Counted from the first letter of the stretch, positions 6,499 to 61,632 are shown. The stretch: 64,000 nucleotides of DNA from an uncultured Actinomycetes bacterium (GCA_963708985.1 CAVPUQ010000002.1:155240-219239), one strand, 5' to 3'. Notes: generated by a model from the letters alone, not told the origin. A program made the numbers and translations.

Positions 6499-8531
6499 CA
6501 GCGGTCCTCGCCCTTCTCGGTCCGTCCTGCTCCCGCCGCGCCTCGGTCCTGTCTCCACTCAGCCGCCGGGATCGGGACGGGCAGGGATTCCCACTCCTCG
6601 GCCTCTCTGCCCGTCAGCTTCAGCACGGCATCCAGCCTTGGAGGGCACACCTCGAAGCACTCGCCGCACTTGGTGCACAGATCAGCGTCGATCACGTGGA
6701 TCGACTTCCGTTCACCCCTGATGGCGCCGGCGGGGCACGCCTTGAGACAGAGACCGCAGCCCGGGCACCTGTCGGGGTCGATCGCGAACGTGAGGAGCGC
6801 CTTGCATGCCCTCGCAGGGCAGGCACCGTCGTTGATGTGGGCCTCATACTCATCGCGGAAGAAGCGGAGCGTTGAGAGCACGGGGTTGGGCAGCGTGGTG
6901 CCGAGTCCGCACATCGACGCGTCCTTGATCACCTCGCCGAGGTCCTCGAGCAGCTCGAGGTCGCCCGGTCGCCCCTCGCCTGCGGTGATCCGCGTGAGGA
7001 CCTCGAGGAGGGCGTCGCTGCCGTCCCGACAGGTGGTGCACTTGCCGCAGGACTCGTCGTTGGTGAACTGGACGAAGTACTTGGAGACGTCGACCATGCA
7101 CGTGTCTTCGTCCATGACGATCATGCCGCCTGAACCCATGATCGAGCCGGCTTCCCGGAGGCTCTCGTAGTCGACGGGCGAGTCGAAGTAGCTTGCCGGG
7201 ATGCAGCCGCCGGACGGACCCCCGGTCTGGACGGCCTTGAACTCCTTGCCGTCCGGGATCCCGCCGCCGACGTCCTCGACGATCTCGCGAAGGGTCATGC
7301 CCATGGGGACCTCGATCAGCCCGGAGTTCTGGATCTTGCCCACGAGCGAGAAGATCTTGGTGCCCTTGCTGGTCTCAGTGCCCGTTTCCGCGAACCGGCC
7401 GGCGCCGCCCGTGATGATCACTGGGACGTTGGCGAGCGTCTCGACGTTGTTGATGACCGTCGGCTTCCCCCATAGGCCGGACTGCACCGGGTAGGGTGGT
7501 CTTTGCCGCGGCTCCGGCGACCTGCCTTCGATCGAGCGGATCAGAGAGGTCTCCTCACCGCAGACGAACGCGCCCGAACCCTCACGGATCTCGACGTCGA
7601 GGCAGAAGCCCGAGCCGAGGATGTCCTCGCCGAGCAGCCCGTGCTCGCGGGCCTGCTCGATCGCCTTCTGTAGACGGACGATAGCGAGCGGATACTCGGT
7701 CCTCACGTAGGCGTAGCCCCGCGAGGCTCCGATGGCGTATGCCGCGATGGCCATGCCCTCGAGGACCGCATGCGGGTCGGACTCGAGGAGGCTGCGGTCC
7801 ATGTACGCGCCGGGGTCGCCCTCATCGCAGTTGGCGATGATGTACCTCGGCGTCGCCTCTTCGGCGCGGCACAGCTCCCACTTGATGGCCGTGGGGAACC
7901 CGGCGCCCCCACGTCCACGCAGACCCGCGCGGCGCACCTCGTCGATGACCTGTTCGGGCGTCATCGAGGTGACCGCCTTCGCGAGGCCTGCGTAGGCGTC
8001 ACGGGCGAGCGCGTGCTCGAAGACCTCCGGGTCGATGAGGCCCTTGTTGCGGAGCACGACCAGTCGCTGCTTGCTGAAGAACGGCAGGTCGGCGACGAGT
8101 GGCATGGTCGTGGCAACCACTTCCTTCTTCTTCGCCGACGCGTCCGCAGTTGCGCCGGCGACGTCGCCGATGCCGAGGGCGAGATCTTCGACCGCTCGTC
8201 CGCCAACGACGTGGTCGGCCACGATCTTCCGGGCGTCGTCGGCCGCAAGACCACCGTAGAGCGTCGGTGCCTCGCCCGGGACCACGACCGTGACCATCGG
8301 TTCACGCGAGCACAGCCCGGCGCACCCGGTCGTGATGATCTCGACGCCGCCTACCCCCGTCTCAGAGAGCTCGTCGGTGATCGCTGCGAGAACCTCGTTG
8401 GCTCCGGCTGCGCTGCCGCACGTGCCCATGTGGACGATGACCCTGGCGCGTAGGTCTCGTCCTTCGAGGGCAACCTGCCGCACCGCCTCCTCGCGTCGCC
8501 GATAGAGCTCCCGCACGGTGAGGGCGGCCAT
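6498..8531 (-). CDS. NADH-binding flavoprotein of the NuoF/HydB/HoxF/FlxA type (FMN, [2Fe-2S] thioredoxin-like N-domain, 2x[4Fe-4S] C-domain)
   Basis: 677 aa with HMGTCGSAAGANEV...TGCAGLCSREP (thioredoxin-like 2Fe-2S), GRGGAGFPT (NADH/FMN), ESCGKCTTCRDG (N3 cluster), and C-terminal CPGCGLCLKACP / CTKCGECFEVCP. Confidence 0.85.
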   Translation of the reverse strand: MAALTVRELYRRREEAVRQVALEGRDLRARVIVHMGTCGSAAGANEVLAAITDELSETGVGGVEIITTGCAGLCSREPMVTVVVPGEAPTLYGGLAADDARKIVADHVVGGRAVEDLALGIGDVAGATADASAKKKEVVATTMPLVADLPFFSKQRLVVLRNKGLIDPEVFEHALARDAYAGLAKAVTSMTPEQVIDEVRRAGLRGRGGAGFPTAIKWELCRAEEATPRYIIANCDEGDPGAYMDRSLLESDPHAVLEGMAIAAYAIGASRGYAYVRTEYPLAIVRLQKAIEQAREHGLLGEDILGSGFCLDVEIREGSGAFVCGEETSLIRSIEGRSPEPRQRPPYPVQSGLWGKPTVINNVETLANVPVIITGGAGRFAETGTETSKGTKIFSLVGKIQNSGLIEVPMGMTLREIVEDVGGGIPDGKEFKAVQTGGPSGGCIPASYFDSPVDYESLREAGSIMGSGGMIVMDEDTCMVDVSKYFVQFTNDESCGKCTTCRDGSDALLEVLTRITAGEGRPGDLELLEDLGEVIKDASMCGLGTTLPNPVLSTLRFFRDEYEAHINDGACPARACKALLTFAIDPDRCPGCGLCLKACPAGAIRGERKSIHVIDADLCTKCGECFEVCPPRLDAVLKLTGREAEEWESLPVPIPAAEWRQDRGAAGAGRTEKGEDR

Positions 8532-8532
8532 C

Positions 8533-9441
8533 TCAATCGCTCCCCCTGCAGGTCGCGACGATCCCTGGGATGTCCCTGGCTGTCGCCTTCCCGCAGACCT
8601 TGCCGTCCACCATGATGGCCGGGGCCAGGCCGCAGCACCCGATGCAGCGCACGGGCTTCAGCGTGAACAGCCGGTCGTCGGTAGTCTCGTCGGGGTTCAC
8701 CTCAAGGACATCGCTCAGCTTGTCCATCAGCCGCTGGCTCCCGCGCACGTAGCACGTGGTCCCCATGCAAACGCTGATCGTGTGCTTGCCACGCGGGGTG
8801 ATGCTGAACGAGGTGTAGAAGGTGGCGATGCGGTACAGATCGGTGAGCGGCTGGCCCGTGCGCAGCGCTACGTAGACGAGGACGTTCTCTGGGAAGTAGT
8901 TGTACTCGCGGTTGATCTCCTGAAGGATCGGCATCAGCGAGCCGGTCTGGTTGCGGTGGCTCGCCAGGATCTCGTCGACCCTATCTCGAACGGCTGGGTC
9001 GAGCTCCGGCTCTGTCACGGGGTTGAGCTGCACCCTGTTGTGGGTTGGGCAGGAAGTGGTGCACACGCCGCAGCCGGTGCACCTGTCCTCGTCGACATAG
9101 CGCGGTCGCTTCCGAAGGGTGACCTTGAAGTTGCCGACCCCCCCTTCGATGCGCGTCACTTCGGCGCCTGTGATGACGTCGACGTCCTTGTGTCGGCCGA
9201 CCTCGACCAGTTTGGGAGAGATCGTGCACATCGCGCAGTCGTTGGTGGGGAAGGTCTTGTCGAGTTGCGCCATATGGCCACCGAGGGCAGGCTGCTTCTC
9301 GACGAGGTAGACCTTGTACCCGCCCTCGGCGAGATCGAGTGCGCACTGGATACCCGCGACGCCGCCGCCGAGGACGAGCGCGGCCCCGGAGGGCTTGGCA
9401 GCGCCTTGCCGCCGTCCGGCCGGCGTCGGGGTCGGCATCAT
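8533..9441 (-). CDS. Fusion of the HdrA N-terminal FAD half-domain with a NuoE/HoxE-like [2Fe-2S] thioredoxin-like ferredoxin
   Basis: From ATGATG at 9441: ...[52 protein letters not shown]...[19 protein letters not shown] matches the HdrA N-terminus. It is followed by a NuoE-like segment [18 protein letters not shown]...[12 protein letters not shown]...CIGCCGLAP. The 446-aa ORF start is an upstream GC-rich extension. The real start overlaps the acsE stop (ATGA). Confidence 0.7.
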
Positions 9442-10394: not shown

Positions 10395-12302
10395 CTAGGT
10401 GATCGACGCCTCCACGGAAGGGAACCGCGAGAGATCCGTGTGCGGCAGGAACAGTGCCGAGGTGAAGGCCTCGTAGAACGAGTTGTCGGCTGACAGCTCG
10501 ATGTACGTCATCGCCGAGGCGATCCCGGCGACCGCGGCTCGCATCTCACGATCCAGCAGGGCGAGATACGCGCCCTTGACCGAGGTGTTCCCCAGGAACT
10601 CGAAACGCTCCCAGGGAAGATCGGGAAGCAGGCCGATGTCCACGGCCTTCTCGACGTTGATGTACTTGCCGAACGCCCCGCCGATCAGCACCCTTTCGAC
10701 GGAGCCGAGCTCGACGCCCACTCGGTCGGCAAGGACGTTGAAGCCCGCGTAGACCGCGGCCTTGGCCCTCAGCAGGTTGTCGATGTCCACCGCCGTGATG
10801 GTGATGTCATCGCCGTCCGCCGTGTCCTTCCCCCAGGCCACGACGTACTCGGCCCCGTGCTCGCCGCGCCGGACCCGTGGCGTTGGCAGGGTCTGATCGA
10901 TGTGCCCACCCTTGTCGACGATGCCGGTGAGGAACATCTCGGCGACGAGCGAGATCAACCCGCTCCCACAGATCCCGCGAGGCCGACCCTTCCCGATCAC
11001 CCGACAGGTCGGCTCGTAGGTCCGACCGTCGATCCACACCTCCTCGACGGCTCCGCGGGCCGCCCGCATGCCGTGCACCACGCCCGAGCCCTCGAAAGCG
11101 GGCCCCGCCGAGCAGGCGCACGACACGAGCCAGCTCGAGGACCCCAGGACCATCTCCCCGTTGGTGCCGATGTCGATGAACAGCGTGGTCTCGTCGGAGG
11201 ACCGCAGGCCTGAGGAGAGCACGCCGGCGCTGATATCCGCCCCTAGGTAGCTGGCGACCCCCGGCAGCAGGTCGACGGTTCCCTCCGGGCACATGCTGAT
11301 GCCCACGTCCCGGGCGGACAGGCAGGGCGGGTGGTTGATGGACGTGATGAACGGCTCGAGACGGATGCTCTCCGGAGGGATGCCGAGCAACAGGTGCATC
11401 ATCGTGCTGTTGCCGGCGACGACGGCCTTCACGATGGCGGTCGGCTCGACGTTCGCGCGGCGACACACCGCCTCGATCCGCTCGTTGATCGTCGCGAGGA
11501 CGAGCTCCCTCAGCTCCTCGCCGCCGTCTCCCTTGGTGGCGTAGATGATGCGGGAGATGATGTCCTCGCCCCGGGCGATCTGCTGGTTGTACTCGGACGA
11601 CTGGGCCATCACCTCCCCGGTGAGGAGATCCACCAGGCACACCGTGACCGTGGTCGTGCCGATGTCGATCGCGAGCCCACACAGCGGCTCCGAGGCTGCC
11701 GCCGCCGGGCCGATCGCGACGAGGCGAGCGGTGCCCGGCGGCTCGTCCGCGGTGTCGTAGGTGACAGCCACCTGCCAGTCGGAGGATCGGAGCATCCCGC
11801 CGAGCTCGCGGACCTGCGACAGCGACGCTCGGAGCCGGTCGGTGCCGGTCTCGCGGCGAAGCGCGGTGCACAGTCGCGCCCAGTCGTCGGTCTGGTCGTC
11901 CATCGACGGCCGGGGGAGGAGGAGAACGACCCTGCCGATCGTCTGCGCCTTGGCGGCGTCGTACCCGTCGGGCGCGACGATCTCCGGCGCGACGTGATCG
12001 GTCGTGAGCCGGCGCTCGATCTGCTCGACGGGCGGCACGACGACCGACACGTCACCCTCGACCACCGTCTGGCAGGCGAGGGCGTACCCGGCTTCCACGT
12101 CGGCCGCGGAGAGGCGGAGCACGCTCCGGCGCCGCACCCGACCCGATTCCACCCGCACGGCGCAACGCCCGCACCGTCCCTGCCCGCCGCAGGGTTGCTG
12201 GATGTCGAGCCCGAGCCGGCGAGCAGCTTCGACCAGCAGGGTCCCCGCCCGTACGGTGATGGGCTCGGCACGGTCGGCGAATCGGACGATGTGCTCGGCC
12301 AC
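10395..12302 (-). CDS. Corrinoid iron-sulfur protein reductive activase (RACo): [2Fe-2S] ferredoxin plus ASKHA ATPase
   Basis: 635 aa. The N-terminal plant-type ferredoxin reads [12 protein letters not shown]...ALACQT. The ASKHA domain shows [11 protein letters not shown] and FIDIGTNGE. Confidence 0.8.
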
Positions 12303-12316
12303 GGGGGCTCCTCAGA

Positions 12317-13678
12317 TCACGGTCGATCCTCCACCAGCACGGTCTTCATGTAGGCAGGCAGATCCACCGCTTCGCGGGGACCGACCATCACGTGCCAATC
12401 GGGCAGCTCTTCTTCGAGCTCGCCAGACAGGACGGCGACGTGCCCGGGAAGCACGATCTGTCGTCGATCGACCTTGTCAGCCACCCCGAACTCCTTGACG
12501 GCCTTGGCTATCGACTCCGCATCGAACTTGCCGGCTGCCCACGCCGTCAGCACGCTCATCCCCTCGGCATCGGTGACGAGCAGCCATGCGGGAAGGCCGG
12601 AACCCTCCACCTCGTTGGCGACGCTGAAGTACGTGATGCTGAAGTTCGTCGTGACCAGGAGTGGATCGCTCGGCTTCGGACCGTTGATCTCGTAGAGGGC
12701 GGGTTGCACCTGGATCGGTTGCTGCGGATCCGTGTAGAGGTTCTCGCGCAGGACCAGGAGCGGATACACGAGTTCGGGCGCGAAGACATCCAGCACCACG
12801 AATCCCGCGTACTTCGCGATCGCTTGCGTGGCGACGACGGAGACCATGGCCCGATCGATGGACCCGTCGACGAACCCGATCGTCGGATAGCCGAGCGGCC
12901 GGAAGTTCTTCAAGGCCAGGCGCCGGATCTGTGTCTGCAGCGCCAACGAAGCACCCATCCCCGTCGCCATCGGGCGGAGGACGATGTCCTCCACGCCCTT
13001 GCCCTTCAGCTGCTCGCTGAGGTCGGCGAGCTCGTCCAGGGTGCTGCCTGCGACGCTCAGGGCAGCGCCATGCTCGAGCGCCAGATCGGCCATCCGCTCC
13101 CAGTTCTGCTGGTCCGCACCGACGAGGAGCGGCTTCTCCCCATCGAGGATCGCCAGGCCGGCTCGAGGACATCCGGGTCCTCACCCACCAGCACCATCGG
13201 GAGATCGCTGACCCGCCGCACCGTACCCACCGCTCCAGCGAACCTCGCGGGATCACCGGAAGTGGATCCCACGGCGAACCCGTCGATCCCGAGCTCGACG
13301 CCGACGTAGTCGACGGTGTAGGCGTCCGCCCGCTTGACCTGCTCCTCGATCGCCGCCTCCTCGAGCGTGTCGGCGACGTCGATGAGGACACCCGGGCGGT
13401 TGACGAACGTCTTCTCGTGTCGGAAGAGCACCGTTTCGTTGCCGGCCTTGACCTGACGGCCCCTCCCCACCAGCTCGATCAGCCGGATCGGCGGAGCGGC
13501 CGATGCGGCGAGCTCCGTCTTGGACTCGTCCGTCACGTAGGGGCAGTCGCCCAGGTCGACCTGTTTGGCCGCCAGCTTCATGGCGAACGCGAGGCAGGTG
13601 GGGAATCCGCATTCCTTGCAGTTGGTCTGCGGGAGGAGCTTGTAGATCTGGATCCCTGAGAGTGCCGTTGGCCGTCAC
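12317..13678 (-). pseudogene. acsC: CoFeSP large subunit AcsC, broken by at least two frameshifts
   Basis: C-terminal ORF 12317..13093: GYPTIGFVDG..., LYTDPQQPIQV and a B12-binding-like tail. N-terminal ORF 13057..13581: CKECGFPTCLAFAMKLAAKQVDLGDCPYV, the [4Fe-4S] site. The N-terminus ...LSGIQIYKLLPQTNCKEC is out of frame with the only nearby start (GTG about 13678). A second shift sits at about 13155-13160, where a CCC/CC run splits ...DPDVLEPA from LAILDGEKPLLVGADQQNWERMADLA... Confidence 0.7.
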
Positions 13679-14646
13679 CTACCCCACTGTCATCAACTGG
13701 TCGAGGGCGGCCCGCACGCGGGTGAGGCTCTCCGGGTGGCGGAGCACGACGACATCCGCGCCCGCTTCGATCAGCGCCACGGCGGTAACGGTCTCCCAGT
13801 TCACCGCCCGCTCTCCCCAGTCACCCCACGCGTCCGGCACGCCCTGACCGACCTTCGCCTCTTTGGTCTTCCAGGCCTCGTAGCCGGGGTTCACCACCAT
13901 CGGGAGTTGGGTCATGGCATCCCCCTGGAGCGCGGCGAGCCGCAGTCGCTCCATGACCGAGTACCCGTACTCGATGCCGTAGCCGAGTGCGCCGGTGGTC
14001 GGATCCATCAGGATCCGCTCGCGCGGCAGGCCCATGTCGGTGATCAGGATGATGAGCTGCTTGGCCAGGTTGACGTCCATCGGGGTGCGGCCCATCACCA
14101 GGTGATCGTTGGCCATGGCGGCCGCGACGATGGTCCGGTAGTTGGTGTCTTCGCAGAGGCCCAGCACCAGCCGCTCACCCTTGGTGGCGTCGGCGACCGG
14201 GACGAGGAGCTCGTTGTCGACCTCCGCCTGCCCCGGTCCCACCACGATCAACGGGCAGCCCGGTGCTCTCGAGGACCTTCGTGACCGAGCGCACGGCGAG
14301 ATCGGGGCTGACGGGATCGCCGCCGGCGTCCTCGAGACCCAGCACGAGGACGATGAGGTCGGCCCCGGCCATCCGGCGGCCGCCGCCCAGCTGCCGGGGT
14401 CCTCGGCGCACCTCACCCCAGGCCTCCAGCAGCACCGCCGACCAGTCGTTCGGTCGGAGGGAAGCGATCTCCAGCGCGATGACGGGACGGTGTGGAGGCG
14501 TCTCCTCGAAGTGCAGGAAGGGAAGGGTGCGTCTCGCCCCCGATCGTGACGGTCGAGGTTCGCGTCCCACCATCCTGCGCCGTCGCTCCCAGCGTGACGA
14601 CCTTGACCGCACCCGGCCAGTCGTCCTTGGGGATCTCAATCGGCAC
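13679..14646 (-). pseudogene. acsD: CoFeSP small subunit AcsD, broken by about two frameshifts
   Basis: Start GTG at about 14646 after AGGAGG: (M)PIEIPKDDWPGAVKVVTLGATAQDGGTRTSTVTIGGETH... Shift at about 14523-14526 (G run), then ...LPFLHFEETPPHRPVIALEI...ADLIVLVLGLEDAGGDPVSPDLAVRSVTKVLESTGLPV. Shift at about 14235 (GTTG), then IVVGPGQAEVDNELL...GYGIEYGYSVMERLRLAALQGD...VVLRHPESLTRVRAALDQLMTVG. Confidence 0.7.
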
Positions 14647-14692
14647 GAAGGCCTCCTGCTGGTGCGGTCGCGCTCCGGTCCGGTCCGGCCGA

Positions 14693-16992
14693 TCAGAAGA
14701 TCGGCTCCATCGCGAGGGCCGGATGTTCGTGTTCCCCCGAGCCACGCCAGCAGCTCCTCGACCGTCGAGACCGACCGCTCGTCGGCGATACGATCGATCA
14801 GCACGGGATCGCCTTCGCGCTCGGCCACGGCCTTCAGCTCCTCGGCCATCGAGTCCTTCAGGAAGCTGCTCATCCAGACGACACGTCTGAAGCCGCCGTC
14901 GGCCGAGATGAACTTCGGGCTGGCCAGGTAGAACTTCCCGACGCCCATCACGCCGGGGGTCTGGATGCCGCCGCCGGCGAGTCCGGCCAGGGTGCTGAAG
15001 GTCATGCCCGCCGGGGTCATGCTGGTGTCCTCCCGGCTCACCACCATCACGCCGTTCGCCTCGGGGATCAGCATCACGATGCACTCGAAGCACCCGCATG
15101 CCGTCATCGGGTTCTCCATGATCGAGTACATCGCCACCTCGTCGACGACGCCGTGCGAGCCGACCTTGGCGTAGTCGTTGGTGCCCTCCCAGTAGCCCTT
15201 CGACGGGTCGAGCACCTTGCCGAGCTTGATCGGCTGGTTCGGCCCGGTCGGGTTGATGTTGAAGGAGGCCTTGCAGTCGAGCCAGTTGTAGGCCCCGCAC
15301 AGGCCCAGCCGCTCCGGGCTGATGATGCAGACGTGGTTCGGCGCGAACGACTGGCACAGGGTGCATGAGTAGAACTCGTCCACCGCCGTGTCGGTGAGGT
15401 CGGCGAGACGCTTGTTGCGGAAGTCGTAGGCGTCTCGCGCCTCATCGAGGCAGCTCCTTGAGCTTGTGCCGGATCCGTGTGGATCGTCACCTGCACCTTG
15501 TCGACGATGGCACCGAAGTCGGAGTGGAAACGGGCGTGCAGGATCTTGCCGAAGTGCTCCAGGGCGAATCCGGCGTCGGCCGCTTTCGTCGATACGCCGG
15601 ATCCACGCGATGTCGCGCTGACCGATGTGCTGGATACCCGGATGCGCCGTTCACGAAGTAGTGGATCTGGCGCTCGAGCACCGGCTCGAAGTCCTTCTCC
15701 ATCTGGCGGCCGGCGACCTCGACGACGATGCCCAGGTCCATGCTCGCCCTGCGGCTCCACGTCCGAGAAGTCGGGACCGATCACCTCGATCTGGCCGTCC
15801 GTGACCTCGTCGAGCTTGGCCATGCGCAGGTACTCGAAGGCAGCGCGAGCTCTTGCCGCCGAACTCGACCCGCATGTCGGTCTTGCGGACGACCTCGCCT
15901 TCGAAGGCGGAGCCGTAGGGCACCGGCACCGGTACGTCGGCGATGTGGACCTTCACGCCGCGCACCTCGATGCACTTCTGGACGAGACGCTCCGCCCGCT
16001 CGAGGTCGTCGACCCCCTCGATCTCGTTGAACGGCATGCTCACGACGTGCTCGTAGGTCGTCACGCCGGTCGGGAGGATCTGCGGGATCACGGTGTCGGC
16101 GATGACCGGGAACCCGAAGTTGATGGCGCCGGCCGCGGCGGCGTACTTCAGGTCGTCGACCTCGCCGAGCGCGAGCACGAAGGCGAAGACGCGATCCTTG
16201 TTGTAGAGCAGGATGTCTCGCGCCTGCCCGCCCTTCAGGCCGCCGAACGTCAGCGCCGAGCGGGTGGCGAACCCCAGGGCGTAGATGGCGCTGATGGTGT
16301 CGGTGCCGAACGGGACGGTGTAGGTGTCGTAACCGAGCTCGACCCCCTCTTCCATGAGCTGATGGATGATGCTGCGCCCGTTGACGTTGCCCGACAGGAA
16401 GGTCAGGATGTTGCGTTTCTGCAGCTCACGCACGATCCGCACGGCGACCTCGTTCGACTTGGCACAGCCGACGATGGCGGCGAATCCGGGCATGCGCGCG
16501 ATCGACGAGCTGGATGCCCCACGACCGAAGCTGGATGTCGTCGATGGCGCCGTTGAGGTGACCGTTCGAAGCCGCCTTCTCGGTCGCGTCGGCGTCGGGA
16601 CTGGTGAAGGCGGTGCCGCCCGCCAGCTCGAAGCCGGGCAAGACCTCCGGCTGCAGTCCGTCGACGTAGCGGATCGCTTCGATGGTCTCCGCGGCGAGCA
16701 AGGTTGCCATACCGCTGTCGAGGGTCTCGCCCAGGTACGGGGTCCACTGATGATCGGCGGGGAGAGGGTGGAGCAGGTCGCGGGCGTGGGCCAGCACTTC
16801 GGGGAGCTGCCCGAGCGTCTCGACCTCGATGCCCGTCATGCCCAGGATCACCGGAAGGTGATAGGCGGTGTTGGGGAACGCGACCGGGGTCTCGGCTCCC
16901 TTCTCGCCGAGGGCTCTGTCCAGCATGGCCTCGGCTTCCGAAACCAACGCGTTGGCTCCCCGGATGGCACGTGTGGCGATGTACCTGGACAT
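14693..16992 (-). pseudogene. acsB: Acetyl-CoA synthase (ACS, A-cluster subunit AcsB), broken by about 8 +1 frameshifts
   Basis: ATG at 16992 after AAGGGAGGG: MSRYIATRAIRGANALVSEAE...NTAYHLPVILGMTG. The remaining homologous segments sit in successive +1-shifted frames: MPGFAAIVGCAKSN..., MAKLDEVTDGQIEVIGPD, MDLGIVVEVAGRQMEKDFEPVLERQIHYF, GIQHIGQRDIAWIRR, ...GAIVDKVQVTIHTD, and the A-cluster region FYSCTLCQSFAPNHVCIISPERLGLCGA...ACGCFEC. The end ...EHEHPALAMEPIF with TGA at 14693..14695 lies in yet another frame. Confidence 0.75.
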
Positions 16993-17009
16993 GAGCGGCG
17001 TGCCCTCCC

Positions 17010-19046
17010 TTATGTCACGGTCCCGTAGATCGCCGACCGTCGCTCCGGCAACGGGAGTGCCTCGAGCTCTCGGGTGCGCGCATCTCCGCTCTTGCCGAAC
17101 CTGGTCGGGTCGTACGCGGGGAGCCCGAGCGCGGCTCGCTTGGCATCGATGTGCGCGAGGGTGCGAGCGATCATCTCGTCGGCGTCGGTGAGGAACTCGA
17201 GCTTGCCGCCGTAGAGCTCCTCCCAGCCACTGCTCATGTAGTCGGCGACCACCACGCTCTCGGGAACCTTCTCCGCCTTGCCTTCGACGGGGTTCGTGCC
17301 GCCCATGATCACGTAGGCCCCGGACGCCACGCAGTACGTGGCGATCGAGAGCGCCTTCTCGCTCATCCACTCCGGAGCGATGCCGACCGCCGGGATCTCG
17401 TCGATGTCGTCGCCCAAACCCCCCTCCGCCACCATCTGCGTGAGCACCGTCAGGATCCGCGTGTTGTCCACGCAGGACCCCATGTGGAGCACCGGCGGGA
17501 TCCCCACCGTTTCGCAGACCTCGCGGAGGCCCGGACCGACCCTGTCCAGGCCGGCGTCACCGACCAGGAAGCCGGCCTTCGCGTTGGCGATGGCGCTGCA
17601 GCCGGTCTCGACCACCAGCACGTCCTGCTGGAGCAGTGCGGAGGTGATGGCGGTGTGCATGGAATCGTGCTGGATGCGGGGGTTGGTGCACCCGACGATG
17701 GCGGCCACGCCCCGGATCCGACCGGCGATGATGGCGTCGTTGAGCGGGCGGAAGGACGCCCGGTACGCTCCGCCGAGCATGTAGTTGATGTACTCGTGGG
17801 AGAAGCCGGGGGTGAGCGTGTTGCGGTAGTCCGGGATGCGGGTCTCGCCTCGGTTCTGATAGTTGTCGATCGCGAACCGCAGGATCTCCTTGGCGATGCT
17901 CATCGCGCGGTGTTCGTCGAACTCCATGTGGGTGGCACCCTTGATCCTGACCTTCGGCGAGGTGGTCACGATCTTGGTGTGGAAGCGCTCCGCCAGGCTC
18001 ACCAGGGCCTGCATGATGCACTGCACGTCGACGACCATCGCTTCGATCGCTCCCGTGAGGATGGCCAGCTCCTGCTGCAGGAAGTTCCCGGCCGCGGGGA
18101 TCCCCTGTCGCATGAGGATCTCGTTCGCCGTGCAGCAGATGCCGGCCAGGTTGATACCCTCGGCGCCCGCGGCCTTCGCGTACTCGACGATCTCCGGATC
18201 CTGGCTGGCGGCGACGATCATCTCGCTCAGGGTCGGCTCGTGGCCGTGGACGACGACGTTGACCATGTCGTCCTTGAGCACGCCGAGGTTGGCCTCTCCC
18301 AGGAGGGGGGCAGGCGTTCCGAACAGGATGTCGGAGACGTCGGTCGCGATCATGCTGCCACCCCAGCCGTCTGCCAGCGCGGTGCGTATCGCGTGGTGCA
18401 GGATGTGACTGGCGTCCTGGTCGTCGCCCATGTGGGTGCGATGCAGGGCTTCGACGACCTCGCGGTCGATGCCCCGTGGGATGACGCCGCGTTCTTCCCA
18501 TAGCGTCCTGCGCTTCGGCGGGGCCAGCCGGATCGGTGCGATCTCGCCGCGCTGCTGCCCGAACTGCTCGAGGTAGAGGTCGGCGAGCTCGTCCGCGATC
18601 TCTTCGGGTGCACGCCCTTCGACGGCGATGCCGTACGCGCTCGCCACGGTGCGGAGCTTGGCGACGTCACGGATCGCGTACCCCTCCGTCTCTCCGTTGG
18701 CCACCGCCTTGAGCGTGAACGCCATGTCGCGCCCGTGGTCGGAGTGCGCCGCCGATCCTGCGGCCACGGATCGGATGAAGTTGCTCGACTGGATCGTGTC
18801 GATGGTCGCTCCGCAGATGCCCGTCGAGCCGTCCTTGGTCAGACGACAGGGGCCCATCCCACAGAGGCTGCAGCACATGCCAACCGCGCCGATACCGCAG
18901 GGAGTCAGGGCGTCCGCACGGCTGAAGGCCGTCGAAGCGCCGATCTCATCGGCGAAGGCCAGCATCACCTGGGCGGCAGGATCGACCGATGATTCCTGGG
19001 GACTGCGCCTTCCCTTCTGTGGGGAGGTCCCTTCCCGCTCGGCCAT
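17010..19046 (-). CDS. acsA: Carbon monoxide dehydrogenase catalytic subunit (Ni,Fe-CODH; AcsA/CooS)
   Basis: 678 aa, intact. The N-terminal D/B-cluster cysteines read CGIGAVGMCCSLCGMGPCRL. C-cluster region motifs: HGHEPTLSEM, GICCTANE, VVETGCSA, HMGSCVDN. Confidence 0.9.
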   Translation of the reverse strand: MAEREGTSPQKGRRSPQESSVDPAAQVMLAFADEIGASTAFSRADALTPCGIGAVGMCCSLCGMGPCRLTKDGSTGICGATIDTIQSSNFIRSVAAGSAAHSDHGRDMAFTLKAVANGETEGYAIRDVAKLRTVASAYGIAVEGRAPEEIADELADLYLEQFGQQRGEIAPIRLAPPKRRTLWEERGVIPRGIDREVVEALHRTHMGDDQDASHILHHAIRTALADGWGGSMIATDVSDILFGTPAPLLGEANLGVLKDDMVNVVVHGHEPTLSEMIVAASQDPEIVEYAKAAGAEGINLAGICCTANEILMRQGIPAAGNFLQQELAILTGAIEAMVVDVQCIMQALVSLAERFHTKIVTTSPKVRIKGATHMEFDEHRAMSIAKEILRFAIDNYQNRGETRIPDYRNTLTPGFSHEYINYMLGGAYRASFRPLNDAIIAGRIRGVAAIVGCTNPRIQHDSMHTAITSALLQQDVLVVETGCSAIANAKAGFLVGDAGLDRVGPGLREVCETVGIPPVLHMGSCVDNTRILTVLTQMVAEGGLGDDIDEIPAVGIAPEWMSEKALSIATYCVASGAYVIMGGTNPVEGKAEKVPESVVVADYMSSGWEELYGGKLEFLTDADEMIARTLAHIDAKRAALGLPAYDPTRFGKSGDARTRELEALPLPERRSAIYGTVT

Positions 19047-20857: not shown

Positions 20858-20951
20858 CGCGGAGGCGGACGGGAATCGAACCCGCCTGCGAGCTCTCGCC
20901 CGCACACCGGTGTTGAAGACCGGGGGGCCCACCAGGCGCCCGGACGCCTCC
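20858..20951 (-). tRNA. selC: tRNA-Sec (selC), anticodon UCA
   Basis: Reverse complement: GGAGGCGT..CCGGT-CTTCAAC-ACCGG (anticodon stem-loop, anticodon TCA), a long variable arm TGTGCGGGCGAGAGCTCGCAGGC, T-arm GCGGGTTCGATTCCCGT, and a 3' acceptor CCGCCTCC pairing with 5' GGAGGCG (8/5-type). Confidence 0.75.
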
Positions 20952-54025: not shown

Positions 54026-55069
54026 ATGGACCAGCACGATCTGTGGCCGCAGGTCCTGTCCCGGCTGGCTTCGCACGGGTCGCTCTCCGCCGACGAAGCG
54101 GCCGAGGTCATGCGGCGGATCATGACCGGGGACGCGACGCCCGGGCAGATCGGCGGGTTCCTCATGGCTCTTCGAACCAAGGGCGAGACCGTGGACGAGG
54201 TCGAGGGGCTCGTGCGGACGATGCTCGAGTTCGCGACGCCCGGTCCGCACCGCCCGAGCCCGTCGTCGACGTCGTCGGCACCGGCGGCGACCGAAGCGGG
54301 ACCTTCAACATCTCGACGGTCTCGGCGATCGTGGTCGCGGGCGCCGGTGTCCCCGTCGCCAAGCACGGGAACCGCGCCGCCAGCTCGCGACTGCGGCTCG
54401 GCCGACGTGCTCGAGGCGCTCGGCGTGCGGATCGACCTCGACGCGGCGGGGGTCGAGCGGTGCCTGACGGAGGTCCGCATCGCGTTCCTGTTCGCTCCCG
54501 CGTTCCATCCGTCGATGGCGCATGCGGGGCCCGTTCGTCGCGAGCTGCGGGTACCGACGGTCTTCAACTTCCTCGGGCCCCTGTGCAATCCGGCGCAGCC
54601 GTTCGCGCAGGCGGTCGGAGTATCCGATGCCCGGATGCTGCCGCTCATGGCCGAGGTGCTCGCGCGGCGCCGGGTTCGCGCGAAGCTGTTCCGGGGGCAG
54701 GACGGTCTGGACGAGCTCACGACGACTGGCATCTCGGCCGTGTACGACGTCCGTGATGGCGAGGTGCGCGAGACGCACGTCGATCCCGCGGACCTTGGAC
54801 TGTCGCGAGCCGAGCGTGGACGACCTACGGGGAGGGGATGCGAGGACGAGGCCGCGAGCATCGCGCGAGCGATCCTCGAGGGCGGGCGGGGTCCGCGACG
54901 CGACGTCGTTCTGCTGAACGCGGGCGCGGCGCTCGAGGTCGCCGGCGTGGCGAGCTCGATCGCCGAGGGCATGACGCTCGCCGCGCGTTCGATCGACGAC
55001 GGGGCGGCCGCCGCCGTGCTCGAGCGTTGGATCGCGGTCTCGCGCGAAGGGGTGGCTCGCGGACGATGA
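54026..55069 (+). pseudogene. trpD: Anthranilate phosphoribosyltransferase with two apparent frameshifts (about 54245 and about 54390)
   Basis: Frame A: [70 protein letters not shown]. Frame B: [42 protein letters not shown]. Frame A again: [24 protein letters not shown]...[33 protein letters not shown]... Confidence 0.7.
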
Positions 55070-55643
55070 TCCTGTCGGACGCCACCATCCTCGAGGAGAT
55101 CGCTGCGGGGCGCATCGTGATCGACCCCTTCGACGAGACGTGCGTCCAGCCGTCCTCCATCGACCTCCACGTCGACTCGCAGTTCCGCGTCTTCGCGAAC
55201 TCTCGTTACCCGTATATCGACGTGCGGCGTGAGATGCCGGATCTCACCGAGCTCGTGGAGGTCGGGCCGGCGAGCCCTTCATCCTGCATCCCGGCGAGTT
55301 CGTGCTCGGCTCGACGCTCGAGCGCGTCGCGATCCCGGACGACATGGTCGCGCGGCTCGAGGGCAAGTCGATCGCTTGGATCGGCTCGGCCTGCTGATCC
55401 ATTCAACCGCGGGCTACGTGGACCCCGGCTGGGACGGCTACCTGACGCTCGAGCTGTCGAACGTCGCGAACCTGCCCATCACGATCTACCCGGGTATGAA
55501 GATCGGGCAGATCTCGTTCTTCCGGCTCTCGAGCCCGGCCGCCCACCCCTACGGGTCGAGGGCGACCCACAGCAAGTACCAGGGACAGCGCGGACCTACG
55601 GCGAGTCGGTTCTTCGAGGAGTTCCTGCGCTCGGAGGGCAGCT
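55066..55643 (+). pseudogene. dcd: dCTP deaminase with two apparent frameshifts (about 55265 and about 55365)
   Basis: [43 protein letters not shown]...VEVGP, then [33 protein letters not shown], then [49 protein letters not shown], in three frames. Its ATG overlaps the trpD stop. Confidence 0.7.
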
Positions 55644-55955
55644 AGTCTCAGGCGGAGGGGTCGTCGGGCCCGGGTGCGGGCTCTGGGTCTCCGAGGGTTG
55701 GAGCGCGCGCAGCCGCTCGAGCAGTTGACCCGCGCTCGTCTCCAGAGCTGGCGGCAGCGCTCGGTCCTTCTCGGCCTCGGCGCTGGCCTCGACGGGAACC
55801 CTGCCTCGAGCGGCGCGGGTCTCCTGGCGCCGCCGCTCCGACATCGCCTTCAGGCTCCGGTACCAGTTGTCCTCGTAGGCGCTCTCGTCGCTCGAGCGGA
55901 CCCATCGGATTCGGACCGCTCGTCGTCCGTCCTGCGGAACATCGTCCTCTCCCCG

Positions 55956-56660
55956 CTAGCGCTTCGAGCCGGGCACGCTCGCGCGCCCCCCGAAGTCCAA
56001 GGTCGGAAGCCCAGGTCCGATCCCCATCGACACTGCGGCCATCGCCGCTTGCGTCCGGTTCGTGACACCCAACTTGCGGAAGATGGCCGCCAGGTGGGCT
56101 TTCACGGTCTTCTCCGACAGGAAGAGCGCTCGCGAGATGTCGCGGTTGCTCTTGCCCTCCGCGAGCAGCGCGAGGATGTCCGTCTCGCGCTGGGTGAGCG
56201 AGCTCGACGGACGGAGCGAGGCTCGCCCGTTCTCGGGTGCGCCGCCGTCGATCGACTCGAATAGGTTCTGGATCACGCGACGGGGACAGCACGTTGCCGC
56301 CGCCCGACATCGCGACCTTGATGGCCTGCTCGAGGTCTTCGGGCGTCGCGTCCTTCAGCATGTACCCTGCGGCGCCTTCAGCGAGGGCACGGCGCACGTA
56401 GTGGGCATGATCGAACGACGTCAGCATGATGACCGGGACGTCGGGCCAGCGCTGCTTCATCTCGTGTAGCAGCTCCAGGCCGTCCGAGTCGGGCATCCGG
56501 ACGTCCACCAGGGCCACGTCGACCTCGGTCGAGTCCATCACGTGCAGCGCCTCGGAGGCATTGCCGGACTTCCAAGACCTCGGCCTGCGTGAAGCACTCC
56601 CGAACCACGTGACCCATCCCGCGGCGCACCAATGCGTGGTCGTCGACGATCAGGATCCTC
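55956..56660 (-). pseudogene. NarL/LuxR family response regulator with two apparent frameshifts
   Basis: GTG at 56660 after AAGGAG: VRILIVDDHALVRRGMGHVV. Shift, then ...VDVALVDVRMPDSDGLELLHEMKQRWPDVPVIMLTSFDHAHYVRRALAEGAAGYMLKD. Shift, then ...LTQRETDILALLAEGKSNRDISRALFLSEKTVKAHLAAIFRKLGV. Confidence 0.65.
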
Positions 56661-57343
56661 ACGGCTGTTCTCCTTGCTTGTGGACGGGCAGCCGGGCGAC
56701 CACCCGCGTTCCCGATACCGGGCGCGGACTCGACGTCGAGCCTGCCGCCCTGTTCCGCCACTCGACGGCGCATCATCTCGAGGCCGAGATGTCCGTTCGA
56801 CACGCAGGTGGAGGCCGGCTCGAAGCCTCGGCCATGATCCTCGACGCACACCTCGAGCGCTTCCTCCGTCGCGGCCACGCGCACCTGCACCGCGTGCGAC
56901 GCTGAGTGCTTCGCAGCGTTCGCCACGCCCTCGCGGATCACGGCCGAGGCCGCCTCCAGCACGCGGTCCGGCACGGAATGCAGGTCGCCCTCGATCTCCC
57001 ACGTAGCGGGCAGCTGCCAGCGCTCCATGACACCGCGAACCAGATCGTCGAGGCGATCGGCCCCGCGTGGTTCCTCCGGCGACATCGTTGCGAGCATGTC
57101 GCGGATCTCGTCGAGCGCCTTGCGGAGCTCTGCCGCGGCACGCTCGAGCACGTCCTTGGTCGCGGCCGGATCGGACTCGACCTGCCGTGCGAGCCACTCG
57201 AGCTCGAGGACGGATGCCGTGACGACCTGGGTGAGCCCATCGTGGACCGCGTACGCGAGACGGGTGCGCTCGAGGGCCACCGGATCCACGGGAGCAACCT
57301 CTCCGAGATCGGGCGGCTCGGTCAGCACGGTCATCGTCTCCAC
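56657..57343 (-). CDS. Cytoplasmic sensor histidine kinase (HisKA_3 + HATPase); terminal frameshift at a GGG run at about 56680
   Basis: ...RLAYAVHDGLTQVVTASVLELEW (H-box), ...REGVANAAKHSASHAVQV...VEDHGRGF...GHLGLEMMRRRVAEQGGRLDVESAPGIG. The corrected tail reads TRVVARLPVHKQGEQP-TGA, which overlaps the RR GTG. Confidence 0.7.
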
Positions 57344-57575
57344 GCCTCGTCCTTCACGTCTCGTCCTTCGACACGCTGGCGTGTCGTCTGTCGCTTGGCC
57401 CGATTCCCGTCCGGTCGGCGTCGGCCGATGGTCGGTCCTGGGCCCGATCGGTCTAGTTCATCCTTTCGGTCGGTTCCCCGGTCGGCTTGAACTCAACGGG
57501 CCACGACATCGGCCGAAGGGCTGGATGCGACCCTCGAGCTTCGGAGACCTTCGTGCCGAGGAGCGGGGCTGGGTG

Positions 57576-59598
57576 CTAGCGGGTGGGCACGGCGGGCGGT
57601 CGGTCCGCCCCCACCGAGCGGGCAAGGATCTGGGCGACGTCGAGCACCTCGGTCGCGTCGCCGCGGGCCCGGTGGCCGTCGTCGAGCATGATCAGGCAGT
57701 ACGGGCAGGCGACGCCGACCGTGTCTACCCCGGTCGAAGCTGCCTCGTCGGCCCGTTCCTGGTTGATCCGCTTGCCGATCCGCTCCTCCATCCACATCCG
57801 GGCACCACCCGCCCCGCAACACAGAGCGCGCTCACCGTGGCGGGGCATCTCGACCGTCCGGACGCCGGGAACGCGCTCGAGCAATGCCCGGGGTTCCCGG
57901 AAGATGCCGTTGTGTCGGCCGAGGTAGCAGGGGTCGTGGTACGCGAGCAGCGCGTCCGACCTGCTCCACGGGCTGCAGGCGCCCCTCCTGCACGAGCCGC
58001 GCCAGGAGCTCCGTGTGGTGCAGGACCTCGAAACCCCCACCGTACTGCGGGTACTCGTTGCGGAGCGTGTTGAAGCAGTGCGGGCAGTTCGCGACGATGG
58101 TGGTGACCCCGGCGCCGCTCAGGGTTGCGACGTTCTGCTCGGCGAGGGTCTGGAACAGGTACTCGTTGCCCATCCGCCGGGCAGGGTCTCCCGTGCAGAG
58201 CTCGCGCGGGCCGAGGATCGCGAACGAGACCCCCGCCGTCGCAAGGATCCTCGCGAGCGCTTGAGTGATCTTCTTGGCTCGGTCGTCGAAAGAGCCGGCG
58301 CATCCCACCCAATACAGGACCTCCGGTGGGTCGTCGCCTTCGGTGAGCACGCGGACGTCGAGCCCGTCGGCCCACGCGGCACGTGTCGACTGCGGCATCC
58401 CCCACGGGTTGTTCGTGTTCTCGAGATTGCGCAGCAACGCTCCCGCCTCTTGCGGGAAGCGCGACTCACCCATCACGAGGTTGCGACGCAGGTCAACGAT
58501 CGTGTCGACGTGCTCGATGTCCACCGGGCACTCCTGCATGCAGGCCCCGCACGTCGTGCACGCCCACACGACCTCCTCTGCGACGACGTTCGGCACCAGC
58601 GGGGTCGCCTCGTAGGGCTCTCCGCGTCCCCGGGCGACCAAGATCGCCGGGCCCTCCGCGAAGAGCTGGTCGCGGAGGTCCATGACGAGCAGCTTGGGCG
58701 AGAGCGGCTTACCCGTGTTCCAGGCGGGGCACGCGCTCTGGCACCGCCCGCACTCGGTGCAGGAGTAGAGGTCGAGCAGCTCCTTGCGCGTGAGGTCGGT
58801 GATGGTCGCAGCCCCGAGGGATTGCTCCCCGGCCTCGAGGGCTTCCATGCTGATCGGCAGCGGCGTCAGGGCTCCTCGCGGCTTCGTGCTCGCGAAGAAC
58901 ACGTTGATGAAGCTCGTGGCGACGTGCAGGTGCTTCGAGTAGGTGAGGAACACGAGGAACCCGAAGACCAGCATCAGGTGTGCCCACAGGAACACCTGCT
59001 CGAGTGCGAATAGCCACGTCTCGGACATGTCCTCGAACGGCTGCGCGAACAGGTTCGACACCGGGGTCCATGCGACCGACGACTCGTTGATGCCCTGCGC
59101 GATCCGCATGCCGTTCGCGAGGAACAACGTGAGGACGACCCAGCCGATCCAAACCAAGATCCTGTACGCCTCGCGTGTGTGGCTCCCGACGAAGCGCTCG
59201 GGGCGCTGGATGAGCCGGATCCACAGGGCCATCGCGAGGCCGACCGCGACGAGCCCCGCGAAGAGGTCCTGGACGAGCCCAAGCCAGGCTGTGCGTCCCA
59301 CCCAGGGGAGCGCGAAGTCCGGGGCGATGACCTGACCCGCCGCTTCCGCGATGGTGGTGAGCAGGACCAGGAAGCCCCAGAAGATCAAGGCGTGCATCAG
59401 CCCAGGCACGAAGCGCTGGAAGAGCTTGCGCTGGCCGAGCACGTGGGAGCCCTCACGGGCAAGGCGTCTCGGCAGGTCACCCGACCGGTCCACCGGCCGC
59501 CCGAGCGCGTTCAGCTGGCCGAGCAGCCGAGCGCGGCGGGCGAACAGGCCGCCGGTCAGCAGGACGATCACCGCCAGGGCGCCGGCACGCACGATCAT
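57576..59598 (-). pseudogene. Membrane-bound HdrED/DsrMK-like fusion: NarI-type heme-b membrane domain, 2x[4Fe-4S] ferredoxin and two CCG domains. Frameshift at about 57990
   Basis: 6 N-terminal TM helices with conserved His (FWGFLVLL..., WAHLMLVFG). The ferredoxin domain reads CTECGRCQSACP and CTTCGACMQECP. CCG domain 1 reads YWVGCAGSFD...CTGD...ANCPHC. Shift, then CCG domain 2 reads AYHDPCYLGRHNG...CCGAGG...CPYC. Confidence 0.65.
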
Positions 59599-59775
59599 CG
59601 GGCGCGAGTCTAGCCGGTCCCCTCGACCGGCGCTGCGAGGACGGAACGGGGGTCCGGGAGCCAGAGTTGATAGTCAGACACTCAAGTTTTATCCTGTCTC
59701 CAGACTGAGAGAGCGGGCCGGGTCCAGACTCGAGAGAGCGGGCCGGGTGGAGAGCGAGAGCTGAGGAGGAAGTCG

Positions 59776-61631
<1,856 letters not shown>

Positions 61632-61632
<1 letters not shown>

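Follow-up and report, generated by a model that had tools for sequence, protein, structure and literature searches.

Clustered single-base frameshifts in the acetyl-CoA synthase genes of an uncultured actinobacterial genome probably reflect consensus errors in the assembly

True pseudogenes that arise through reductive evolution, as in Mycobacterium leprae, carry nonsense mutations, deletions of varied size, relaxed dN/dS and losses of conserved residues, and indel mutation in bacteria is usually biased towards deletions. Programmed frameshifting of the prfB type and homopolymer phase variation each involve one conserved site, marked by a defined motif or a long repeat tract. Reading frames are also broken by technical errors: indel-driven frameshifts are the characteristic error of metagenome-assembled genomes (MAGs) from long reads, especially below about 40x coverage (PMC9262707). 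Gene fragmentation by such indels, from Nanopore or PacBio reads, has been measured by IDEEL and repaired by tools such as proovframe (PMC9262707; bioRxiv 10.1101/2021.08.23.457338; PMC13087279). In addition, long-read metagenome contigs contain kilobase regions without read support, and these zero-coverage regions have been reported at tens per 100 Mbp (PMC13087279).

The stretch of DNA analysed here (64,000 nt, hereafter the window) belongs to an uncultured, Actinomycetota-like genome of roughly 69% GC. An earlier note on this DNA had described a frameshift hotspot in acsB, acsD and acsC, and had left the choice between a local assembly or consensus problem and a very recent inactivation of the acetyl-CoA synthase (ACS) and corrinoid iron-sulfur protein (CoFeSP) module. 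Our comparisons favour the former, on account of the unrelated genes that are also hit, the indel spectrum and the undamaged state of the repaired genes. With a probability of about 0.88, as judged from sequence evidence, the frameshifts in acsB-acsD-acsC are consensus errors in the deposited assembly and not mutations of the organism; errors are preferred over ACS decay because a second patch and scattered shifts break unrelated housekeeping genes in the window.

The gene order acsA-acsB-acsD-acsC-RACo-acsE agrees with that in the relatives L001-L003 and L081-L086, and all of the 66+ related loci examined have single intact ORFs in the same order. The flanking genes are unbroken in the window as well, as had been claimed for acsA, RACo, hdrA and the nuoF-like gene. 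A single tblastn HSP spans residues 1-677 of AcsA, acsA has no window-specific indel in the DNA alignment, and its exact protein is present in the public protein collection. RACo and acsE are each full length in one HSP, as are hdrA, FlpD, DUF5981, MTHFR and Fer4, and the nuoF product is an exact member of a 677-aa protein cluster. No window-specific shifts were found in acsA, RACo, acsE, nuoF or hdrA.

In the acs genes, indels of a length not divisible by three were placed by frameshift-aware protein-to-DNA alignment against three intact relatives, combined with a six-sequence DNA alignment. Frameshift-aware alignment was used because plain tblastn under-counts the shifts: it bridged acsB between 16496 and 14739, and likewise trpD, as a single HSP. 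The alignments revealed 14 window-specific 1-nt indels between 13166 and 16500, namely 12 gains and two losses (Table 1), of which eight lie in acsB, four in acsD and two in acsC; the six-sequence DNA alignment contained no window-specific indels of greater length in this patch. Earlier counts of about eight in acsB and two in acsC hold, but that of about two in acsD has to be raised to four. All 11 sites mapped previously were recovered within about 20 nt; the pair at 14408 and 14378 had been missed, and the gain at 13669 had been given no coordinate. In line with these shifts, the Pfam CdhC and ACS_CODH_B_C matches of acsB are spread across frames, and the FeS and CdhD matches of acsC fall in two different frames. 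Without both extra bases, the acsB segment at 15450..15465 reads PAQLKELLDEAR in the alignment, where relative L085 has PARLEELLGEAR. The patch begins 490 nt within acsB and finishes 830 nt short of the end of acsC. Since it starts inside one gene and stops inside another, it tracks a physical stretch of DNA and not the boundaries of genes or functions.

Table 1. Genes, patches and single-base indels in the window. Positions of indels in the acs genes are good to ± a few nt; gains (+) and losses (-) are relative to intact relatives.
Feature	Position	Strand	Remarks
acsA (CODH catalytic subunit, 678 aa)	17010..19046	-	Intact; Pfam Prismane match
acsB (acetyl-CoA synthase)	14693..16992	-	763 aa after taking out 8 inserted bases; fragmented as deposited
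acsD (CoFeSP small subunit, about 323 aa)	13679..14655	-	Events +1, +1, -1, +1
acsC (CoFeSP large subunit, about 446 aa)	12317..13678	-	+1 at 13669, -1 at 13166
RACo (CoFeSP reductive activase, 635 aa)	10395..12302	-	Intact; sole difference an in-frame 3-nt deletion at 11701
Putative error patch 1	13166..16500		3,335 nt; 14 single-base indels (12 gains, 2 losses); 4.2 per kb
acsB +1	16500	-	GAT[C]GCGCGC, plus a substitution against GAT-GGN-CGC of relatives
acsB +1	15842	-	TGC TTC to TGCCTTC
acsB +1	15746	-	CAGGG-GAGC to CAGGGCGAGC; no run extension
acsB +1	15636	-	GG to GGG within TCCGGGTATC
acsB +1	15595	-	ATCCGGCGTATCG
acsB, two separate +1 (~15465, ~15450)	15450..15465	-	CAAG and TGCCTC
acsB +1	14739	-	G5 run, CTCGGGGGAA; sole patch 1 event in a run ≥4
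acsD +1	14533	-	GAGACGC against GA-ACGC
acsD +1 and -1	14408 (+1), 14378 (-1)	-	30-nt frame excursion
acsD +1	14255	-	CC to CCC
acsC +1	13669	-	A to AA, between GTG at 13678 and the acsC body, just past the start region
acsC -1	13166	-	G lost from CTG CGG, mid-gene
Putative error patch 2	54241..57963		3,723 nt; about 14 single-base indels
trpD		+	+1 at 54241, 54255, 54389, 54811; +2 at 54847
dcd		+	-1 at 55272; +1 at 55371 and 55380
Kinase/regulator		-	-1 at 57346; +1 at 56710, 56568, 56280
Fer4/CCG protein		-	+1 at 57963
tadB, isolated +1	~32235	+	T2SSF profile positions 3-47 and 44-123 in different frames
Histidine kinase, isolated +1	~43000	-	HATPase_c profile positions 2-55 and 43-110 in different frames
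hsp20, isolated +1	62022	+	Artificial 356-aa Hsp20-GrpE ORF

The shifts are not confined to acsB, acsD and acsC, as had been supposed, nor does the hotspot appear special to ACS genes, since the same lesions occur in unrelated ones. A second patch of about 14 shifts, alike in size and indel density to the first, was delineated from Pfam domains lying across frames, from comparison with the intact relative L091 by tblastn and frameshift-aware alignment, and from DNA alignment. Further single shifts lie in tadB, in a histidine kinase gene and in hsp20, and probably also in dnaJ at ~63809. The tadB shift makes an artificial cpaF-tadB ORF at 30582-32612, and in place of the Hsp20-GrpE ORF the relative has separate genes, for products of 151 and 203 aa. 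Composition-based frame maps (GC3, Viterbi) were treated as indicative, especially at 29-32 kb; because they are too noisy, frameshift calls outside the acs region were made from homology and Pfam profiles. Conserved genes of any function are thus found broken by single-base indels, as is expected of a long-read artefact.

Over all events, gains outnumber losses 28 to 4 (binomial P = 2e-5), each event being 1 nt, and this bias is common to patch 1, patch 2 and the isolated events. The shifts are clustered far beyond chance: the densest 3.4 kb holds 14 events, whereas 100,000 simulated trials gave 5.3 on average and never more than 12. Runs of at least four identical nucleotides are as dense within the patches (7.5 per kb) as in the clean flank (7.4 per kb), and homopolymer richness was dropped as the cause of the hotspot. 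The description of nearly all shifts as lying at G/C homopolymers or CGCG repeats did not survive alignment either, as only one of the 14 events of patch 1 (G5 at 14739) falls in a run of at least four, and most sites have runs of 1-3 nt or no run extension. The events are not focused in long homopolymers, where the errors of long-read assemblies would be sought. With most events outside such runs, the pattern departs from the one classically left by Nanopore or 454 sequencing, which counts against reading the shifts as artefacts.

Two other causes were considered and set aside. The AcsB, AcsC and AcsD proteins of relatives match one locus only in the 64-kb window of the 503-kb contig, which leaves no second paralogous acs copy there that could have collapsed with the first. 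Selenocysteine recoding, suggested by a nearby tRNA-Sec, is irrelevant, the disruptions being frame changes and not in-frame TGA codons. Gene-by-gene dS against L084 and L085, which resolves poorly at such distance, showed no divergence step at the patch borders of the kind left by a chimeric strain.

The sequence context also bears on whether full-length proteins might still be made from the shifted genes by programmed recoding, that is, by +1 ribosomal frameshifting or transcriptional slippage. The conservation of all segments and the nearly uniform +1 direction would fit such a mechanism. The sites, however, share no common slippery motif, hungry or stop codon or long A/T run, eight of them in one gene would reduce the yield to a negligible level, and no relative changes frame at any of the sites. 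We regard recoding as having practically no chance of being the explanation.

Repaired AcsB has exactly the canonical length of 763 aa and covers 100% of its 763-aa homologues; among about 8000 homologues, the best shares 91% identity with it. It carries the family architecture of CODH_A_N, CdhC and ACS_CODH_B_C, as seen from Pfam matches on the fragments and from homologues of the repaired protein that carry PF18537, PF03598 and PF19436. It contains CTLCQSFAPNHVCIISPERLGLCG and ACGCFEC, which we take to be the A-cluster ligands (CxxC...C...C and Cys-Gly-Cys), and repaired AcsC contains CKECGFPTC...C, presumably the N-terminal [4Fe-4S] motif. At columns conserved in at least 98% of sequences, AcsB has one deviation, sited at a shift point, and the median among 117 homologues is also one. 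Substitution errors should likewise be present in patches of raw-read quality, and AcsB shows almost none, which counts against an artefact; by our rough estimate, only two or three would be expected at its conserved columns.

The alternative left by the earlier note, a genuine and very recent inactivation in which a real burst of frameshifts turned acsB, acsD and acsC into young pseudogenes, can be weighed against this state of the coding sequence. The dN/dS of the repaired segments, proposed earlier as a check since it should be relaxed in a pseudogene, is 0.087-0.158 for acsB, 0.18-0.22 for acsD and 0.19-0.26 for acsC, which agrees with the 0.09-0.38 of pairs of intact relatives and the 0.10-0.20 of acsA and RACo on the flanks. 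Neither relaxed selection nor the loss of conserved residues is therefore apparent, given dN/dS of 0.09-0.26 and the one AcsB deviation. The frameshift-aware alignment contained no internal stops in the repaired acs genes, so that, with 28 gains and four losses all of 1 nt, the mixture of nonsense codons, indels of varied size and deletion bias typical of pseudogenes is not seen. Longer indels and conserved-site replacements are likewise absent, and the 12:2 gain bias of patch 1 is opposite to the usual bacterial deletion bias.

The same disrupted allele was not found in independent genomes or assemblies. The truncated products (AcsB pieces of 188 and 402 aa, AcsC pieces of 174 and 258 aa, and a 588-aa CCG protein) are all singletons on one 503,239-bp contig in a collection of about 15 billion proteins, in which no other assembly has these alleles. 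None of the closest homologues of AcsB, at ≤91% identity, is broken. The nearest relatives reach ≤82% identity for AcsA in a genome scan and ≤91% for AcsB in a protein search, and protein-cluster members ≤95% for AcsA and NuoF; at these distances, all comparisons are between species and none within one.

For inactivation speaks that the indels stand in the deposited record and not just in the window, and that repeated hits in one operon resemble neutral decay after a first knockout. Indels could moreover be relatively frequent if repair in Actinomycetota leaves indel loops; to our knowledge, MutS/MutL are missing from these bacteria, and such loops escape correction by their NucS system. However, the patch disregards gene boundaries, and acsA, RACo and acsE, which would then be equally useless, are unhit over more than 5 kb. 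Through a like patch and isolated hits, trpD, dcd, hsp20 and probably dnaJ would be disabled too, and a free-living cell would not lose all of these at once. Considering the unrelaxed dN/dS, the lack of nonsense codons, the 28:4 excess of gains and the hits in trpD, dcd, hsp20 and grpE, we consider inactivation very unlikely.

The two patches, similar in extent (3.3 and 3.7 kb), density and spectrum, and with few substitutions relative to indels, could also be imagined as tracts of localised mutagenesis, real clustered insertions left where error-prone repair or gap-filling by a +1-slippage-prone polymerase extended over about 3.5 kb. Yet no bacterial process known to us would insert single nucleotides, and nothing else, at about 0.4% across kilobases, a cell freshly without trpD, dcd and ACS would have to dominate its population to be assembled, and the isolated events elsewhere share the +1 bias, which suggests a technical cause acting over the whole contig. 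Such mutagenesis seems exceedingly improbable. It is highly improbable, too, that the indels are real in the form of two ~3.5 kb +1 tracts from some unknown, localised and insertion-prone DNA synthesis in an actinobacterium lacking mismatch repair; were it true, the organism would have been caught just after disabling its Wood-Ljungdahl ACS module and several housekeeping genes.

If the frameshifts are consensus errors, the contig would have been built from long, indel-prone reads; its length of 503,239 bp suggests such a source. The indels, their clustering and spectrum, their occurrence in unrelated genes and the undamaged repaired coding sequence are observed, whereas the platform and the reason why correction failed locally are inferred. 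Correction would have left about 0.07 single-base indels per kb in most of the contig, while two stretches, one of about 3.3 kb and one of about 3.7 kb, may have retained about 4 per kb, a level that we take to be close to that of raw reads. Either stretch would be about as long as one read or one polishing gap. Few or no reads might have aligned there during polishing, our guess being a local drop in coverage, a segment contributed by a minority strain or a failure to place short reads. Any such cause is conjectural, as two dense patches per 64 kb are far more than published counts of zero-coverage regions would predict. With the frameshifts read as consensus errors, the organism would have an intact, functional acsABDC-RACo-acsE Wood-Ljungdahl module.

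The value of this case is practical. Read at face value, the MAG would be annotated as being without acetyl-CoA synthase, CoFeSP, trpD and dcd, and such an annotation would lead to the false inference that the Wood-Ljungdahl pathway of this lineage is incomplete or decaying. Public protein collections already contain the truncated proteins, as well as the artificial Hsp20-GrpE and CpaF-TadB fusion ORFs. Errors in long-read MAGs can evidently clump strongly at the kilobase scale, and because of this clumping, a quality score averaged over a whole genome can mask stretches of unusable sequence.

Compared with known systems, the locus resembles bacterial pseudogene clusters such as those of Mycobacterium leprae in having multiple frameshifts in adjacent genes of one pathway, but it lacks their nonsense mutations, varied deletions, relaxed dN/dS and residue losses. 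It shares with programmed +1 frameshifting of the prfB type and with homopolymer phase variation a +1 change inside a conserved gene, although here there are 14 unconserved, motif-less sites. It also resembles the fragmentation of long-read MAGs: conserved genes are split by single-base indels whatever their functional class, the contig is very long and comes from an uncultured genome, and removal of the indels gives proteins of canonical length. It differs from the usual form of this fragmentation in that the indels form two clumps of about 3.5 kb, where they are about 55-60 times as frequent as in the background; gains exceed losses 7:1, and most events lie outside long homopolymers. Zero-coverage regions are found at tens per 100 Mbp, in contrast to two patches per 64 kb here, but the patches may be similar to them in being kilobase stretches with poor read backing in otherwise good contigs (PMC13087279), a likeness that would explain a local failure of polishing.

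In our estimation (probability about 0.88), the frameshifts in acsB, acsD and acsC are an assembly artefact and not a biological hotspot; they are also not peculiar to the ACS genes. They exist in the sequence and are well localised. The Pfam domains of AcsB, AcsD and AcsC are spread over different reading frames, and frameshift-tolerant protein-to-DNA alignment, queried with the same three proteins from each of three relatives, returned the same seven events in acsB with all three references, concordant events of +1, +1, -1 and +1 in acsD, and a concordant -1 event in acsC. On comparison with closer relatives, one +2 event in acsB proved to be two separate +1 insertions, at ~15465 and ~15450. 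Alignment of the DNA at 10395-19046 to that of five relatives, from which all indels unique to the window were listed, placed single-base gains at 16500, 15842, 15746, 15636, 15595, 14739, 14533, 14408, 14255 and 13669, a 2-nt gain at 15454 corresponding to the pair of acsB insertions, and losses at 14378 and 13166. Beyond the events within 13166-16500, this alignment showed just two window-specific indels: RACo lacks 3 nt in frame, and the variable spacer between acsB and acsD differs by 1 nt. The eleven shift positions named in an earlier note were all recovered; the 14408/14378 pair had been missed there, and the insertion in the acsC start region had been left unplaced. The flanking genes are intact, as the same note had stated for acsA, RACo, hdrA and the nuoF-like gene: acsA, RACo and acsE each gave one full-length HSP in tblastn, likewise hdrA, FlpD, DUF5981, MTHFR and Fer4, and nuoF falls in a cluster of 677-aa proteins.

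The affected genes lie in a Wood-Ljungdahl cluster within a window of ~69% GC. The core order acsA-acsB-acsD-acsC-RACo-acsE is common to the window and its relatives, which are loci from uncultured Acidimicrobiia/Actinomycetota genomes and metagenome contigs with intact ORFs (acsA 678, acsB 763, acsD 321-326, acsC 446, RACo 636 and acsE 307-314 aa).

Positions of the Wood-Ljungdahl genes and of the isolated frameshifts in the window
Feature	Position (nt)	Strand	Remark
Wood-Ljungdahl cluster		minus	Pfam and tblastn homology to relatives
acsA	17010-19046	minus	
acsB	16992 to ~14693	minus	
acsD	~14655-13679	minus	
acsC	~13678-12317	minus	
RACo	12302-10395	minus	
acsE	10388-9438	minus	
NuoE-like gene		minus	downstream of acsE, before nuoF-like
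nuoF-like	8531-6498	minus	
hdrA-like	~6500-3262	minus	
FlpD, DUF5981, MTHFR, Fer4 and CCG proteins		minus	downstream of hdrA-like
tadB +1	~32235		isolated; artificial CpaF-TadB ORF 30582-32612, 676 aa
histidine kinase +1	~43000		isolated
hsp20 +1	62022		isolated; artificial Hsp20-GrpE ORF 61629-62699, 356 aa

At 3262-9441, acsE is followed by the NuoE-like and NuoF-like genes and then by the hdrA-like gene (~1080 aa), a layout unlike that of the closest relatives (L082-L085), in which acsA is preceded by a 1479-1493-aa HdrA/GltD-like fusion and acsE is followed by two cooC (CbiA) genes and DUF166. FlpD and DUF5981 form one unbroken 433-codon ORF in the window (1964-3265, minus strand), with the last ~15 FlpD residues unaligned, whereas they are separate genes in all relatives (4-nt overlap or 31 nt apart); this ORF could be a natural fusion or reflect a further indel near 2650-2690. 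Within the Wood-Ljungdahl/hdr neighbourhood, a tRNA-Sec gene (anticodon TCA; 20859-20951, minus strand) is flanked by a CCG-domain gene and a DUF3786-like gene, so the contig may encode selenoproteins with in-frame TGA, either close by or elsewhere.

The shifts had been thought to be confined to acsB, acsD and acsC, but a second patch and isolated +1 shifts in tadB, a histidine kinase gene and hsp20 were found. A gene map based on codon usage resolved most of the window into normally bounded genes and failed at 12.3-17.0 kb and at 54-58 kb. In the latter region, Pfam placed positions 3-45 of the Glycos_transf_3 profile of TrpD in one frame and Glycos_trans_3N with positions 46-252 in another, and split dCTP deaminase likewise (profile positions 1-65 versus 101-152). 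The receiver and GerE domains of a response regulator were not in the same frame, and the second CCG domain of a Fer4/CCG protein was out of frame. A close metagenome relative whose DnaK is 95.8% identical to that of the window has intact ORFs across this region. Frameshift-aware and DNA alignments gave ~14 single-base events (12 gains and 2 losses) at 54241-57963, affecting trpD, dcd, a HisKA_3 kinase with a LuxR-type regulator, and a 670-aa Fer4/CCG oxidoreductase. This patch matches the one in the acs genes in size, density and spectrum. A further isolated +1 shift is probably present in dnaJ (~63809). In a relative, the hsp20 and grpE counterparts are separate (151 and 203 aa). The natural stop of cpaF is apparently absent, so one more shift may lie near 31.8 kb. 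In the spacer upstream of dnaK, a 42-nt insertion relative to the same metagenome relative (59714-59755) duplicates a CCCGGCCCGCTCTCTC-like motif and may be a repeat in a heat-shock promoter/operator region.

At least 32 events occur in 64 kb, 28 of them inside two intervals totalling 7.06 kb (binomial P ~4e-23). The patches hold 4.2 and 3.8 events per kb, against 0.07 per kb in the rest of the window, and the most events in any 3.4 kb was 14 (simulation mean 5.3, maximum 12; 100,000 trials). Every event is 1 nt long, and gains outnumber losses by 28:4 (P = 2e-5). Composition does not explain the clustering, because runs of at least four identical bases are equally dense in both patches (7.5 per kb) and in the clean 9 kb downstream (7.4 per kb). 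The earlier claim that G/C homopolymers or CGCG repeats account for nearly all shift sites is only weakly true: a single event of the acs patch lies inside a run of at least four, and several inserted bases differ from both neighbours. A tract of insertion-prone DNA synthesis in the organism, for which we know of no precedent, is highly improbable. Programmed recoding can in practice be dismissed, since the sites have no shared motif and the alignments show a shift in none of the relatives at any of them.

After computational removal of the frame-shifting bases, the genes bear no mark of decay. Repaired AcsB has exactly the length of its homologues (763 aa), aligns over 100% of that length and shares 91% identity with the best match. 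Cysteine motifs, which we take to be metal-binding in AcsB and AcsC, are kept in the repaired proteins, and no internal stop codon occurs in any repaired gene. Among alignment columns with at least 98% conservation, AcsB deviates in one, located at a shift site with ambiguous base placement (median 1, maximum 7 among 117 homologues). Nei-Gojobori dN/dS values of the repaired genes (acsB 0.087-0.158, acsD 0.18-0.22, acsC 0.19-0.26) are indistinguishable from those between intact relatives (0.09-0.38) and from flanking acsA (0.10-0.15) and RACo (0.16-0.20). The relaxation expected of a pseudogene, which the earlier note had proposed as a test, is thus not seen; this result, indels aside, argues against a pseudogene of any age; acsB, acsD and acsC are not decaying. 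Of the two causes proposed earlier, assembly or consensus error is favoured by the damage to non-ACS genes and the otherwise undamaged coding sequence. Real, recent inactivation of the ACS genes is unlikely: it would require 14 independent insertions within 3.3 kb and not one nonsense or conserved-site substitution, a gain bias opposite to the deletion bias usual in bacteria, the sparing of acsA, RACo and acsE, although these would be no less dispensable, and the loss at the same time of trpD, dcd and chaperone genes.

Of 66 related loci, 60 have ATG at the acsC initiation position; the six closest to the window (L081-L086) have ACG there, as does the window itself (13666-13668, minus strand). 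These six come from independent ENA, JGI, NCBI and Logan assemblies and carry a strong AGGAGA Shine-Dalgarno sequence upstream of the ACG. From the acsD stop up to the ACG they contain no in-frame ATG, GTG or TTG, and gene callers therefore begin acsC 23-29 codons downstream, which would cost three of the four N-terminal [4Fe-4S] cysteines. The ACG is a possible near-cognate start codon of acsC, conserved across these loci.

The shifts belong to the deposited assembly, since the window's intact proteins and truncated pieces (AcsB 188 and 402 aa, AcsC 174 and 258 aa, and a 588-aa CCG protein) were found letter for letter in a collection of ~15 billion proteins. Every such piece traces to one 503,239-bp contig in NCBI and ENA, the frameshifted pieces are singletons or sole full-length cluster members, and no independent assembly in that collection carries the shifts. 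Residual consensus error in an assembly from indel-prone long reads would fit the half-megabase length of a contig whose organism is uncultured, the sparse background of lone single-base indels in genes of every kind, two ~3.5-kb patches with ~0.4% indels that are indifferent to gene boundaries, the uniform gain bias and otherwise undamaged coding sequence. Since each patch is about one read long, it is plausible that the contig segment derives from a minority-variant read that few other reads matched at the polishing step; a drop in local depth, or unplaceable short reads, would have the same effect. Until reads contradict it, the organism is best regarded as possessing an intact ACS/CoFeSP module, and the acs patch and 54-58 kb need repair or flagging ahead of metabolic inference. 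A second practical lesson is that long-read MAG errors can fall in dense clumps. Kilobase regions without read support are documented within long-read metagenome contigs (PMC13087279). Frameshifts are a known weak point of long-read MAGs, notably at low depth (PMC9262707; proovframe preprint), and those in the window are likewise single-base indels in genes of every kind.
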